A DNA stretch of 64,000 bases, taken from assembly GCA_010015805.1 (NCBI GenBank), contig ML978126.1:1364001-1428000 (forward strand). Direction: 5' to 3'. The first letter of the stretch is position 1. Each line of letters opens with the position of its first letter. The DNA comes from Rhizodiscina lignyota. Lineage: Eukaryota. The notes beneath the pieces are model-generated. The model did not search any database, was not told the origin of the DNA, and was given only the letters and a program-made list of their open reading frames with translations. Shown here piece after piece: positions 11,983 through 19,265 of the stretch. The position numbers were made by a program, and so were the translations under genes.

Positions 11983-12723
11983 GCGTGGAAGGAGCATTGG
12001 GATGGCTTCTGCGAGATTCGATTATGATTCTTCTTGCGGTTAGGTGATTCGGTTGATATTGGACCTCTTCTTGCTGTGGTGCTTGAGGGCTATTAATCCA
12101 TTCGGTGCGACTCGGTCATATACCACTCATGAATCATGATACTTTTGAAGGCCCATTTCGCTGAACATTTTATTTTATTCTGGTATACCGTGATCATTGG
12201 GGGGTGTATCGCATTCGCATGAGCTCCAAGAAAAAGCAAGAGACAGTAGTGCAGCAGGAGAGAGAAAGGAACCAGCTCCACCAAAGCCCCATCTATCCCA
12301 CTGGAGTGAGAAAGACAGGAAACGATTGATCGAAGGCCAGTGTAGACACAGTGGTGGAGAAAAATATGTGACATCTCGCTGCCCACGCCGCATCTGACAT
12401 ACTTTGAGTCAAAAATGAAAAGAAAAAGGACATGCCCCCCATGGCAATCTGCAGATCGCAAAAGCATCCCATCCTGAAAGCAAATCCCATTTGAGTTTTG
12501 GTGATCGTGGTTGAGAGAGAAACCCAGAACAGCTTTCCCAATCGCTCTATCCCATGCCCCTGTGCGCAATCCCCACTGACATAATCCAGAGACGTTGGTG
12601 TGCCAATGTTTGCCGAAATGTCAAAAACACTTGCCAGGCGATAAGACAGAGTAGAGAAAGGAGCCTGAGAACCTCGCAATCCAGAGTCACACCTCATTGA
12701 AGTTTGTCATGAGAGAAAGGCGT

Positions 12724-14102
12724 TTACGCAGCAGGCTGCTCCGCTGCCGGCTCCTCCTTTGGTGCCTCCTCAGTCTTTGGTGCCTCAGCCTCGCCAGACG
12801 CAGCAGGAGCTTCCTCGGCCTTGGGTGCAGCCTCACCGCCAGCCGCAGCAGCAGCTGGGTCAGCCTCGTTGCCGTCGCTGCTTGTCCAGAGAGTGAGGTT
12901 GTCGCGAAGGAGCTGCATGATGAGCGTGCTGTCGCGATAAGACTCCTCAGAGAGCGAGTCGAGCTCGGCGATCGCATCGTCGAATGCCTGCTTGGCAAGA
13001 TGGCAGGCGCGGTCGGGGGAGTTGAGGATCTCGTAGTAGAAGACGGAGAAGTTCAGGGCAAGACCAAGGCGAATAGGGTGAGTAGGAGTGAGCTCGGTCT
13101 GAGCGACATCGGTGGCAGTCTAGATGAATCTGATGAGAACGCAGAAGTTTAGTTTTGGTAAGAAACATTACCTTGTAGGCCTCGTGCGCAGCGGTAGCAG
13201 CAGTCTTGCGCTTCTCGCCAGAAGCGAACTCGGCGAGATAGCGGTGATAGTCACCCTTCCTATAATGCGATGCTACGTAAGCCGAGTGAACCGTGATAGG
13301 ATCGACTAGGAAAGATGCAGATGGACATGTAATCCTGAGTCATGAAGTGACGCACATCTTGTGGTAGAAGACCTTGCTCTCGCCCGACTCGGCCTTGGGG
13401 ATAAGGCAGTCGTCCAACACGTCGAGGACATCTTGGCAGACCTTCTCGAGCTCGGTCTCGATCTTCTGACGATAGTCGCGAATGGTGCCGACGTGCTTAT
13501 CGGAGCCCTTGCTCTCCTCCTTCTGCTCGATCGAGGAGATTATGCGCCAGGAGGCACGACGCGTGCCGACAACGTTCTTGTAGGCGACCGAGAGGAGATT
13601 GCGCTCGTCCACGGTCAACTCGCCTCCGATCTGTCATGTATTGTGAGTTATTGTGGTGTTTTGAAGGCGACAGTCGCGGGAACGGGATTCGCCGGACTGG
13701 AAAGGTGTCGCATGATGCCTTTGACGTACCTTCGCGACCTCCTATACAGGTTTTAGCGTGAGCGCAAACGTGGCATTGTGATTTCTACTACTGACCTTCA
13801 TGTACGTGACCATCTCTGGTGAGAGAAGCAACGTTAGCAAACCGCCAAGTTGTGTGAAATTGCACGTCACAACTCACCATCGTAGCGCTCAGCCTGCTCG
13901 CACAGCCGGGCGAGGAAAGTCTTGCTGTTCTGCCGTCAATGTACATGTTGTGCGTAGGCCTAGTGTATTCGCATGCATACCTCTCGCGCTGTGCAGAAGA
14001 CATCGAGTTAGCAACGGTGTTGTTTATCACGGCGTGTAGGCGTCAGAGGGGCAGCACTATCGGGGTATGCGGGGAGGGGAAAAGACTTACTTCACTCGTC
14101 AT
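12724..14102 (-). CDS. 14-3-3 protein (8 coding exons)
   Basis: Exons 14102-14091, 13988-13981, 13924-13878, 13815-13796, 13741-13730, 13630-13356, 13259-13172 and 13119-12724 splice to [55 protein letters not shown]...[14 protein letters not shown]. Confidence 0.97.
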
Positions 14103-16931
14103 GGTGAAGAGCTGATGTGCCAGACGCGCTGTCGTGGGTTTGGAAGAGGGAGTGGTGGGTGGTGTGGTGGATGAAAGGTTGAGGAAGGTGCGAGGAGTGT
14201 TGTTAGAGGCGTTGACAGTTGGGAGCGTCGACGATTCGAAGGTCGAAGAAGTGCGGCCGGGATGTTGGCCAGCTCACAAAAGGCGTGTGCGCCGCTCCGT
14301 GACTGGGCGGACTGGAGGGCAAGCAACTCACGGGGCTCAGCAGGAAATTACATCACTGATTCGGTACGTATTGCTGGTGCCCGCCGAGCCCAAGGCATGA
14401 ATTTCTTGTTTGTTTCGGATGCGCGTCCTAATGCTTTACCGCTCTGTTCTACGCGCTACCAATGGTTTGTGTTACACAGACAACCCGATGTACAGCTAGT
14501 TGGTGGGGAAGAAGCTTATTCTCAACATTCAGTCAATGAGAAAGGCGGGAGTTTTGGAGTGAATCAAGCTTATAAAATAGTCAGAGCGGGCGAATTCGAT
14601 CGGCCATGTTTCATTTCAGCGAGGGAGTGCTGCTCGGCGGCTCGTGAAAAATGCCTCGTCTCGGCGCCTAATTCAGCTGTAACCTTTCCTCTTCTAACCG
14701 CATAATCCGTAATTTACGGGCCGCTATGCTATCATGGGCCGCGTTTCAGGCCGTGGTGGGAGCGCTCGAAACAGGCGTTCCCATTCGAAGACGCCTCACT
14801 CCCTCCATCAACGTGGCAGATCCTCCCGGCGACGCATGTCATTATCCAGGTTTAGCTCAAGCAGCTTCCAAGGTATTAAGATAATGCTTCATGGACATCT
14901 TTAAGACCCGTGCCATTCCTCAACGGTTTGCAGCACTGGTTTGTGACGATCAACCTTCACTGCTTGGAAACTTGCTGCTCAGATCCTTTGTCTGCCATTG
15001 CCTTCCACTTTCCAGCTGGATTTCGTAAAAATATTAAAGAATCGTCCCTTGGTATTTTCCATTCTTCCGCTAGGTTGAAGTCTAACTATTTTCATTTCGT
15101 GTTCGTCTCTGGGTTGGGTGTGGATCATATCATCCTCCACTGACGAACTCAAGTTTGTCGATGTCGCCGTCCGAGCTAGCTCTGAATTGAAGTGTTGCGC
15201 AGATATCTGGATGCTTTTCTTCTGAACTGTCGTATAGCCGCAGCACATGGTCCTCGGACACAGCATAATGAAAGTTCATATTGGTCGTCGGGGCTGGCGC
15301 GCAACGACTCGAATGGGAGGCTATTCCTGTGCGCAAGGCTGTGAAGACGTAGATATTAGTTCTCTGTGTCTCTGACTTCCTAAGATCGTTTATGATATAC
15401 TCCGTAGTGTCGTATGCAACGTTCATCGTCTTCAACCGCTGCCTGGCACTTTTGATACGCCGAAATAAGTGGGGCAAACAAGTTTCAGGCTCAAGCTACA
15501 AGTTTTTATGCCCTAATACAGACTAGATCTACCGTAGAGGACTAGTAAGCCTTGTATTAATTAGTAAGGGATCAAAAGAGGTGACTGAGGATGTTCTACC
15601 TCAACGTAGTAGCAAATATGTCTCCGACAATGGACACATCTGTAGCCACGACTCAACCCTTTCGTCACACAAGACGGCGATGGTGTGGAGTGGTTTCCAC
15701 TGTAGGAGTGGGTACAGTAGAGTAGCGTGCATGTCATGTGCATCCATCGTCTGGCAAGGCTGGCCGCAGACAAGGGGTTCGACCGGAGAAAGACGTCTCC
15801 GCTTTCTAACCTCGTCCCATCTCGTTATTCGAGTGGCATGCACTAAATTCAATGAAATTGTACATATTTCGTGAGCGATTGCTCGTATATCTTGTTCATA
15901 ATGTGTAGAGAGCCATGCGAGGAATTAGACGAAGTGATTCCCGTCGTTGATGATCCTCTGCGAGCCCTGTAGGTGAGGAATGCTGCACCGTCAACCGATC
16001 TGTCTATGAATGAGCCTCCTGATACTGTACTCAGATAAAAGAAATACCAATGCGACCGTATCATTCCCGTCCGTTATTTACATCGTTCCGGGCCTTCGAA
16101 ATCAAAGGGAGTGTTTCCACCGGCTAAGTTCGTTGGAAGTTGGTCATGCTGAGACTTGAACCGCACTCTATCGCTCATCGAATTCGGGAGGACAAGACGC
16201 AAATCCTAGTATTGCCGGAACGTTCAGGCAGCATTTGGATATCGGACTGTAAGAGCAAGCAGTCCAGGGGTGGACTCATTGTCCTTGAAACCCAATCCAT
16301 CAGTGGTGGCTCAATCGACGGATACTCCTTGGACTGGCTTTTCATGCGATAACTTCTTGGATGATGTGCAGCGGATAGCCGTTCGAGACAATGTGACTGG
16401 CCATCGATCCCCACAAGGTCGTGAGAAGGATTTAGTTGCCGGAACCCATTCGCGAACCGGAGACGTCCCAAACGAGTGCGGCGCACGCTCTCCATCATCA
16501 GCAATGCCTGAACGAAGAGATGTTGTGTTCGTTCACAGGGTCTGTTTGGCGGTGTCAGCTCGAGCGCTACACAATCTGCGGAAGGTTTATTATACCTGTC
16601 CCTTGAATTCTGGCGATAGCCTCAAGGGATATCAGCGGCCACTGTTGCCATTCAAAAAAACATTCCCGAGGAATTTCTCCAAGATAAATCTTTAGCTGAG
16701 GTACACAGTGGTATGCGTTTAAGCCGACGCGGATGTCGAGACATTTCAACGCGTGGGTTCCTGGGGCAAACACAGTGCCTTTTACAACATGCGGAGCGGA
16801 CTCCATCACTCACCAACGCAGTCTGACCCGATTAAGGTGCATGGCGTCAAAAAAGAGATATCGCATGATTCTGGGGAAGAATGTTGAAAGAGATAGAAAG
16901 AGGGAACATAATTTTAGAAAACCAAAAAACC

Positions 16932-16955
16932 AAAAAAAAAAACCCCTCCAAAAAA
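16932..16955 (-). terminator. Oligo-dT Pol III terminator
   Basis: T6 directly follows the tRNA-like 3' end, and T11 lies a few bases further, on the minus strand. Confidence 0.55.
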
Positions 16956-17170
16956 CAACAACACCCAGGATCGAACTGGAGTCCAGTAGAGAAACAAAAA
17001 CCTAGGGGCCCGGTGGCCCCTAGTAAACCCCCCCGGTTGTCGATACTATATGGGAGTTTTCGGAGGAGTACGACGGACTGCCTCCGTAGAGTGCTAGTCC
17101 GAAGTACTAGGGAAAAGGGTTGATGGCCCCGATCGAAGTTGGAAGTGGTAAACCACTCGGCCATCCTACC
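16956..17170 (-). ncRNA. tRNA-like RNA polymerase III transcription unit with a ~145-nt structured insert
   Basis: A box TGGCCGAGTGG (17163-17153). T-arm/B box TCCAG-TTCGATC-CTGGG (16980-16964). Upstream TATATAATTAAAA. Downstream T6 and T11 tracts. Three hairpins lie between the boxes. D stem and acceptor stem pair poorly. Confidence 0.6.
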
Positions 17171-17907
17171 TTATTTGCAGAGAAAATCTTTTTTAATTAT
17201 ATACTATACGTCTTCCCGCTCAAATTCCTGGGCCCCCACCAACAAAAGAACCACACCACTAACTCGCAGCCGAGGACCATCACTTGGGGTACTTTTATGC
17301 TTCAAATTAGATTCTTTCTTGGATCTATCTATTTCCTCAATTTTATGAACATGGCTTCGCTATAGTTCTTGCTATGCTCATCAGGTGTGCCTCGCAAAAC
17401 CCTGTCATACTCAGCTCGAGATTTGCTTCAGACCTACTAGTCATCCGCAGACATGCACCGTGCACATTCAAATCTCTCTCTACTGCTTCTGCAGGCATCT
17501 ACTTCTCTTCGAAATCACATCATATATACGATATTAGCATCGAGAACCCCCGAAGGAGTGCTTTCAAATCTCGAAGCATGCCGTACTTGAAATGCAGAGA
17601 CTCATGCACAAGAATCTAAGAGTTTTACATTCGAATTTCGCTACGTTCAAAGAGACTCTTGCGGACCGTGGCGTATCTACGCATTGAACTAGAGTAGAAG
17701 CCACCTAAGGTTGCCTCCAAGGTTGGTGAGGTTCATGCACACTAGTAGTCGGCTCTATTTACTCAATTCCATCTTGACAAAATATTCCTGCCAAGCTGCG
17801 CATTCTACCATCGTCATGGTCCTTGGAACTCCGGAGCGAGAGATGCATGCAAATCGTAGGCTCGGTCGGCCAAAGAGATTAGACGTATCGTACAGCTTCG
17901 GCGCCAT

Positions 17908-18897
17908 TCACCTCTCCACCTTCTCTTCATCCTTGTCAAGTAACGCCCGCGCAGCAATGAGCTCCGCTTCGTCATAACCTTCCCATCCCTTCTCGCCAGC
18001 CGAGCCCCGTCGAACAATCTCCGCCAGCTTCGACGTCGCGATCTCATGTAGTTTCTCAACGGTCTCAACCGGTGGCGGTGGCAAGTCGCCGTCTGATGTT
18101 GCAATAGCCCCTTTTCCTCCTCTTGGCAGAGCATCCAAGAGCTTCTTTGCGGTTATTTTCAGCCCATAGTATCCACGGAGGTAGTTGTCGCAAAGCTCAA
18201 TACTCCTGCAAAATCTGCGCAGCGCGTCTGAAAGTACTTTGGCCGTGTTCCCTCGATCTGAAGATTCGGATGACGTAGCGGAAATGTATGCGATCTCGCC
18301 CAGCCGCGCGTGTATGTTCCACGCATTCGGTATTATAAGAAGCACCTCTTCTAAACTGTAGATAGCCTGCGAATACAAGCCCTGCGTGAAGTACAAGTCC
18401 GCCAATTCTGCCCAAGCCTCAGAATCTGTCGGTGACGCATCAAGAAGCTCCACTAAGGCTGCCGTCGCATCGTTCGTCTTCCCCATCGAACGCAGCAGCG
18501 CCACCCTCCGCTTGCGTATCGGCATATTGGTCGGATCCTCCTTCAGCACGGCTTCGTAACTTTGCATCACCGCACCTAGCTCTTTGTCGTTCTCCGCCAC
18601 GGCTTCCTCGTACATGCCTTGCAACGCCATGACTCGCTCATTCTTCTCGCCAAAGCGCGAGAGCAGCTCGTCCAGACATCGGCGCGCGGCCTCATTGTCG
18701 CCGGTGCGCAGGCAGGAGATGAGCAAATTCTCGTAGGTCATCCATGTTTCTTGCGTCTCGGTTGATGTGAGGAGGGAGAGGGGATATGGTAGCGATAGGC
18801 TAGAGGAGGATTGTAGGATTTGGGGAGCTTGTTGTGAGAGGTGGACGGCCGTTGAGGGTGATATCGACGGGAATGGTTGGATTAGGTCGGCCGACAT
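17908..18897 (-). CDS. EMC2: ER membrane protein complex subunit 2 (TPR)
   Basis: Intronless from MSADLIQ. TPR-like segments PTNMPIRKRRVA, DSEAWAELADLY and RFCRSIELCDNYLRGYYGLK match EMC2. Confidence 0.9.
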   Translation of the reverse strand: MSADLIQPFPSISPSTAVHLSQQAPQILQSSSSLSLPYPLSLLTSTETQETWMTYENLLISCLRTGDNEAARRCLDELLSRFGEKNERVMALQGMYEEAVAENDKELGAVMQSYEAVLKEDPTNMPIRKRRVALLRSMGKTNDATAALVELLDASPTDSEAWAELADLYFTQGLYSQAIYSLEEVLLIIPNAWNIHARLGEIAYISATSSESSDRGNTAKVLSDALRRFCRSIELCDNYLRGYYGLKITAKKLLDALPRGGKGAIATSDGDLPPPPVETVEKLHEIATSKLAEIVRRGSAGEKGWEGYDEAELIAARALLDKDEEKVER

Positions 18898-19265
18898 CGT
18901 GATCGCATCAATGGATACTCTAGTTTGCCGTAGATCGAGTGGGTCACAGATGCGAGGTAGTAGTTTGAGCTCAATGCGGACTGAAACTCGAAGCCTCTCT
19001 CCAGATGAGCTATGTATGCAAGATTGCGGGCCGGGGTTCAGCCGGAGATGGTGACGATGTGGGATGTCCACAAGAAATATCGTCAACCATGCTGCCATCA
19101 ACTTCTTGTATGCTTCCTTTCAGGACAATGGCTGCCCAGTGACCTACTCACAGCACGCCGATGTATTCTCAAGGGAGCTTAACTTGTCTACGGAAGCACC
19201 ACTTCTGGAGACCAACTACAGTACCCCTCCACTATCAGACCTCGTGAGCATCCAATACCTCCACC

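Follow-up and report, generated by a model that had tools for sequence, protein, structure and literature searches.

In budding yeast, relics of tRNA genes are known which are still served by the Pol III machinery. ZOD1 is an ancient tRNA-Ile gene that Pol III transcribes weakly and iYGR033c is a derivative of a tDNA-Arg; according to PMC5356446, the Pol III machinery continues to occupy both of them, with weak transcription. A different arrangement of the same signals is described in that paper for SNR6, the yeast U6 gene, which has an upstream TATA, an A box in the coding part and a B box in the 3' trailer (PMC5356446). In Neurospora, Pol III is reported to transcribe hairpin small-RNA precursors; milR-1 has a TATA-like element, and one precursor is linked to a tRNA (PMC3547838).

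The element presented here is encoded on the minus strand of the window, i.e. the whole 64-kb stretch of DNA that was analysed; it is 215 nt long and is numbered along the minus strand, with position 1 at 17170. On balance, it is probably a single-copy remodelled relic of a class II (Leu/Ser-type) tRNA gene which keeps its Pol III promoter set, in the manner of ZOD1. As far as the sequence can be read, the TATA-like block, the A box, the B box in an intact T arm and the T runs appear to have been kept and the tRNA body to have been lost. In place of the tRNA middle, the body holds three near-perfect palindromic hairpins, one of which takes in the A-box segment. A description of such an element was not found in literature searches, which does not imply that it is absent from print.

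Layout of the element and origin of its signals

The features are listed below by window coordinates, all on the minus strand; the 'insert' is the 145 nt which the first-pass annotation had placed between two tRNA-like halves.

17191..17203, minus strand: TATA-like block TATATAATTAAAA, read directly, 21-33 nt upstream of position 1; putative TFIIIB site
17149..17170, minus strand: class II tRNA-gene 5' end (Leu/Ser type), with an acceptor-like 7 nt, TG and the D arm up to GGTTTA
17163-17153, minus strand: A box TGGCCGAGTGG, a perfect A-box pattern match inside the tRNA-like 5' end
17118..17170 (positions 1-53), minus strand: predicted 5' hairpin, its stem of 7 bp + 6 bp interrupted by a 14-nt internal loop, probability 0.84-1.0
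17067..17108 (positions 63-104), minus strand: predicted central 16-bp rod hairpin, whose stem has two A bulges and whose tip is C(UACG)G, probability 0.82-1.0
17002..17023 (positions 148-169), minus strand: predicted perfect 9-bp GC-rich hairpin CTAGGGGCC-ACCG-GGCCCCTAG, probability 0.97-1.0
17000-16996, minus strand: internal T5 run inside the 'insert', one base past the GC hairpin
16980-16964, minus strand: intact T arm TCCAG/TTCGATC/CTGGG, with a 5-bp stem and the loop TTCGATC
16976-16968, minus strand: B box GTTCGATCC, in the loop and stem of the T arm
16956..16963, minus strand: acceptor-like 3' strand TGTTGTT + G, 6/7 positions pairable with the 5' strand
16955-16950, minus strand: T6 run, terminator block
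16942-16932, minus strand: T11 run, terminator block
16929-16924, minus strand: T6 run, terminator block (whole block 16924..16955)
16847..17164, minus strand: 105-aa open reading frame (ORF) spanning the element, its ATG inside the A box; judged not coding

The whole Pol III promoter set is present and in order, from the upstream TATA through the A box and the B box to the T-run terminator, and the TATA-like block, A box, T arm and T6/T11 runs lie where the first-pass annotation had put them. In alignment, the 22-nt tRNA-like 5' end is identical in 19/22 letters to the best-scoring bacterial tRNA-Ser, and its A-box segment is intact (15/15). Between the D loop and the T arm stand 168 nt without tRNA likeness, rich in hairpins, and the A box is 177 bp away from the B box. 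The internal T5 run is a candidate Pol III stop, at which transcription would possibly yield an RNA of ~175 nt; this run and the inclusion of the A box in a 13-bp hairpin are additional to the features recorded in the first-pass annotation.

The T arm at 16980-16964 is the only one within the 64-kb window; as 0.35 are expected per window (shuffle mean), a T arm by itself is weak evidence. A composite pattern was therefore defined by a loose A box, a T arm 25-260 nt downstream and then a run of at least five T. It occurs once in the window, at the element, and in none of 300 dinucleotide shuffles, and the loose A-box pattern used in this search is much less specific than the A-box segment itself. 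The Pol III-type signal set exceeds chance, and the earlier proposal that a full set of such signals has been retained from a tRNA gene is borne out by both the A-box match and the composite count. Judged from these sequence features, the descent of the element from a tRNA gene can be regarded as settled.

A comparison was also made with 119 tRNA-bearing metagenome loci, in which blastn returned a single match of 25 nt, at the tRNA-like 5' end of the element. The pattern behind these loci (A box, 150-180 nt, B box) was too permissive: two neighbouring tRNA genes accounted for 103 of its 120 matches, while 13 matches contained one tRNA call and 4 contained none.

Among the metagenome contigs, four share one conserved tRNA-like gene (L003:649-824 (+), L040:3646-3819 (+), L094 and L098, the match starting at 301 in the latter two). 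The acceptor, D arm, anticodon-like arm and T arm of this gene are intact, with ~125 nt in the place of the variable arm; it is called neither by ARAGORN nor by Rfam, and ordinary tRNAs adjoin it. In a further contig (L044:36-222), the D loop of a tRNA-Ser(AGA)-like gene is extended by a hairpin insert of ~28-31 nt immediately past GGTT, which is also where the element in the window ceases to follow the tRNA pattern; a second, intron-bearing tRNA adjoins this gene.

Loss of tRNA identity

The element is no working tRNA, in agreement with the first-pass view that it does not serve translation. ARAGORN called 0 tRNA genes at default stringency, also when introns of up to 300 nt were allowed, and its tmRNA search returned 0 genes, so that a tmRNA-like layout, with tRNA ends around a large insert, is not recognised either. 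Single segments of 15-180 nt were deleted, and 0 of the 18,176 resulting sequences gave a tRNA call, with or without a further intron of at most 60 nt. As a positive control, the same program called 351 tRNAs in the 119 metagenome loci.

The Rfam comparison proposed in the first-pass annotation gave a concordant answer. Rfam 15 yielded 0 matches to any family at gathering score in the whole window, and at E ≤ 10 no tRNA (RF00005) match was obtained in the 701 nt or the 236 nt around the element. The best sub-threshold matches were hairpin-plus-U-run look-alikes, with E values of 0.49-4.9. The element is outside any catalogued RNA family. Motif resemblances to U5 or another Sm-type snRNA, H/ACA and C/D snoRNAs, RNase P/MRP and SRP RNA were considered by eye and set aside, none having Rfam support at E ≤ 10.

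As had been noticed earlier, the D stem is unpaired, the GCC at positions 10-12 being without a GGC partner in place, and the acceptor is mostly G-U. Its pairs read G-U, G-U, U-G, A-U, G-U, G/G and A-U, which makes 6/7 pairable, G-U in 4 cases, the remaining position being a G/G mismatch; the predicted pair probability is 0.000, and a second register 5 nt upstream fits equally well. The only 'anticodon' stem that can be drawn has 4 bp closing a 154-nt loop, at a pair probability of 0.000, and inspection by eye found no place for the 3' strand of the D stem followed by a 7-nt anticodon loop with U33. When the middle was aligned to 144 distinct Leu/Ser tRNAs, the observed score was reached by 39/100 of its own shuffles, a test of low power since the references are mostly bacterial.

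The suggestion that the 145 nt could be a spliceable tRNA intron is not supported by these tests: none of the 18,176 deletions restores a tRNA, and the frame needed by the splicing enzyme is absent from the predicted ensemble. As modelled, the element cannot be processed as an intron-bearing pre-tRNA.

Predicted fold

The minimum free energy (MFE) of the 215-nt RNA is -81.6 kcal/mol, and the predicted ensemble is dominated by three helices, namely the 5' hairpin, the 16-bp rod and the perfect 9-bp GC hairpin. In the first of these, the partner of the A-box segment is a near inverted copy of that segment (GAUGGCC/GGCCAUC and GAGUGG/CCACUU). The tRNA-like frame drawn in the first-pass annotation is disfavoured by the same model: forcing the acceptor and T stem costs +11.0 kcal/mol over the MFE, adding the 4-bp 'anticodon' stem brings the cost to +14.9 kcal/mol, and the pairs of acceptor and 'anticodon' stem have an ensemble probability of 0.000. 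For the T stem the cost of forcing is +0.7 kcal/mol and the pair probability 0.05-0.07.

The three hairpins proposed earlier can all be drawn, and the perfect 9-bp hairpin was recovered at 0.97-1.0. For the UUCG hairpin and for the bulged 9-bp one the probability is 0.0, the 16-bp rod (63-104) taking their place, and the multiloop closure suggested between AACCCUUU and GGGGGGUU fails with a pair probability of 0.0. Against 500 shuffles for each segment, the 5' hairpin (-20.6 kcal/mol) has a z of -2.46 (9/500 shuffles as good), the central rod -4.4 (1/500), the 9-bp GC hairpin -3.55 and positions 1-175 together -3.76 (0/500), with 0.19 for positions 108-146 and 0.27 for the 3' tRNA-like part; these segments were picked after the fold was seen, so the z-scores flatter it.

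Each of the three hairpins is an inverted repeat in the DNA. The sense strand folds at -82.3 kcal/mol vs -81.5 kcal/mol for the antisense strand, with 2 G-U among 68 pairs. As the stems are DNA palindromes, their stability is uninformative on which strand, or whether RNA at all, matters, and the hairpins are palindromes without sign of RNA-level selection. C(UNCG)G loops number 2 on the sense strand vs 0.22 expected (P 0.02) and 0 on the antisense strand; these two loops and the Pol III signals are the sole strand-specific hints.

Copy number and genomic surroundings

In one assembly-like DNA run, 1 of 15,746 contigs (34.2 Mb) covers 16600-17600 at ≥80% likeness, and it does so with no differences; the run is near-identical to the window and possibly its source. 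No second copy of the element is present in the window, and no look-alike stretch was found in the scan's sequence index. The element is single-copy at ≥80% likeness. No flanking direct repeat of at least 9 nt was found, the longest being a T-rich 6-mer, and the tail of the element consists of T runs on the sense strand and is not A-rich.

The window comes from a filamentous ascomycete. The neighbours in it encode an SLC12 transporter, an adaptin, a DUF7730 protein, a 14-3-3 protein and, on the minus strand at 17908-19101, a TPR protein resembling EMC2, with the element 740 nt downstream of this EMC2-like gene. The ~4 kb between the 14-3-3 and EMC2-like genes (13800-17900) contain no Pfam-matching ORF or long frame, and the element is at the edge of this interval. 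The 14-3-3 gene (12700-13760, minus strand) has three short introns, whose 5' sites GTACGT, GTGCGT and GTAATG were taken as the local splice-site standard. On the plus strand, 16877-16915 gave a sub-threshold match to the 5' part of snR50, a C/D snoRNA (21.7 bits vs a gathering score of 45, E 0.91); it is on the strand opposite to the element, just beyond the T runs, and is probably due to chance.

Discussion

The combination of intact boxes, a degraded acceptor and an unrecognisable remainder is not one that uniform decay would produce. Either the boxes were kept by selection or the middle was recently swapped, and the degraded acceptor, in this one sequence, argues for selection. Survival of the promoter parts, and not of tRNA function, would fit both the intact boxes and the degraded acceptor. 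The decayed tRNA gene that the first-pass annotation had listed as an alternative is thereby close to the remodelled relic favoured here. Two features are at odds with this interpretation. At 177 bp, the distance between the A and the B box is greater than the 31-93 nt that PMC5356446 gives for tRNA genes of yeast. Moreover, a relic formed by plain decay would not account for the inclusion of the A box in a 13-bp hairpin and for the restriction of two C(UNCG)G loops to the sense strand, which could mean a selected RNA.

By analogy with the budding-yeast relics ZOD1 and iYGR033c, which the element, if active, would most likely resemble in behaviour, it probably still recruits TFIIIC and TFIIIB. 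TFIIIC would bridge the A and B boxes across 177 bp, TFIIIB would sit on the TATA-like block and Pol III would start near 17170-17180. A stop at the internal T5 would release an RNA of ~175 nt ending with the GC hairpin and U5, leaving the B box in the trailer as in SNR6; alternatively, read-through to T6/T11 would give an RNA of ~220 nt. We infer transcription, the ends of the RNA and any function from this analogy.

The same features can be read as a working, lineage-specific Pol III ncRNA gene, which recruited tRNA-type promoter parts and makes a three-hairpin RNA of ~175-220 nt, either stable or a small-RNA precursor; we consider this doubtful. It would explain why the signal set is complete and in the right order and spacing, why positions 1-175 outfold all 500 shuffles (z -3.76, on segments chosen after seeing the fold, which weakens the argument), why T5 comes directly after the strongest hairpin, why the two C(UNCG)G loops are confined to the sense strand, and why the A-box segment has a 13-bp complement, unlikely by chance. 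The Pol III-made hairpin small-RNA precursors of Neurospora (PMC3547838) provide a precedent. However, the fold is not strand-specific, given the near-equal energies of the two strands (-82.3 vs -81.5 kcal/mol) and the 2 G-U in 68 pairs, and it resembles young DNA palindromes. For a Dicer substrate, moreover, 9-16 bp is a short stem, which counts against a small-RNA precursor. It is unlikely that the locus is a single-copy Pol III gene in which the tRNA promoter ends were kept as a cassette around a hairpin RNA of ~170 nt, with the A box in the 5' stem of the RNA and an end made of a hairpin and U5, giving a newborn structured ncRNA or small-RNA precursor. That the element belongs, as an old and diverged copy, to a low-copy family of tRNA-derived, hairpin-rich Pol III-type (SINE-like) repeats is quite unlikely. 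Aspergillus fumigatus does have tRNA-related SINEs with target-site duplications (PMC5063351), but only one contig of the 34.2-Mb run matches the element at ≥80%, its tail is T-rich, no direct repeat beyond the T-rich 6-mer flanks it and its B box is at the 3' end, not in the head. At that level of likeness, these observations do not support the plain SINE which had also been offered as an alternative.

Two further readings would restore a conventional gene. A working tRNA gene interrupted by a long tRNA intron and/or mRNA-type introns is compatible with the length of 215 nt, and positions 19-64 end with a pyrimidine tract and TAG; it is nevertheless highly improbable. When every pair and triple of GT/GC-AG segments was removed (n = 1,824), an ARAGORN call was obtained in 10 of the 1,824 cases, only with one further intron, and in 0 of 1,824 without it. 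All 10 calls are one Ala(AGC) parse, which starts 5 nt upstream and contains a 26-nt 'intron'; its variable arm is long and its D stem mismatched, and it was rejected as a product of the wide search. Furthermore, no GT site in the element matches the 5' splice sites of the 14-3-3 gene, the D-stem 3' strand and 7-nt anticodon loop with U33 have no place that the eye can find, and the T5 run would be inside the gene. As for a short protein-coding gene, with the 105-aa ORF lying behind a TATA box, its frame is open from the ATG within the A box, yet its probability is minimal: no homologue was found at E ≤ 1 among 5.8 billion proteins (4 word-sharing candidates, none of which scored), the product is absent from the protein collection as a called protein, and the C-terminal third is translated T runs.

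Transcription of the remodelled relic, if it takes place, would illustrate the conversion of a tRNA gene into a new Pol III RNA gene, which keeps the promoter ends and swaps the body for hairpins. If the relic is silent, it would be one more of its kind, and mainly a warning that an RNA gene takes more than an A box, a B box and T runs.

Comparison with known systems

What the element has in common with class II (Leu/Ser) tRNA genes (RF00005) is its first 22 nt, its A box, a T arm that contains the B box and a T-run terminator; in contrast to them, it has no D stem, anticodon arm or variable arm and receives no tRNA call. AfuSINE2, a tRNA-related fungal SINE, is alike in joining tRNA-derived Pol III signals to an unrelated body (PMC5063351), whereas the element has one copy (≥80%), no target-site duplication, no A-rich tail and its B box at the 3' end. 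Should Pol III stop at T5, the arrangement would be that of SNR6 (PMC5356446), with a TATA, an A box at +8, a terminator and a B box ~20 nt downstream; the RNA itself bears no likeness to U6 (no Rfam match). The milRNA loci of Neurospora crassa, among them the tRNA-linked milR-4, also belong to a filamentous ascomycete and combine Pol III signals with hairpins and an upstream TATA-like element (PMC3547838); they differ in that their small RNAs are proven and complete tRNAs adjoin the hairpin, where the present locus has a gutted tRNA. ZOD1 and iYGR033c (PMC5356446) differ from the element in that its body consists of 168 nt of palindromic hairpins and its boxes are 177 bp apart; they resemble it in their descent from a tRNA gene, in the surviving promoter boxes, in the loss of tRNA function and in being confined to a single locus.
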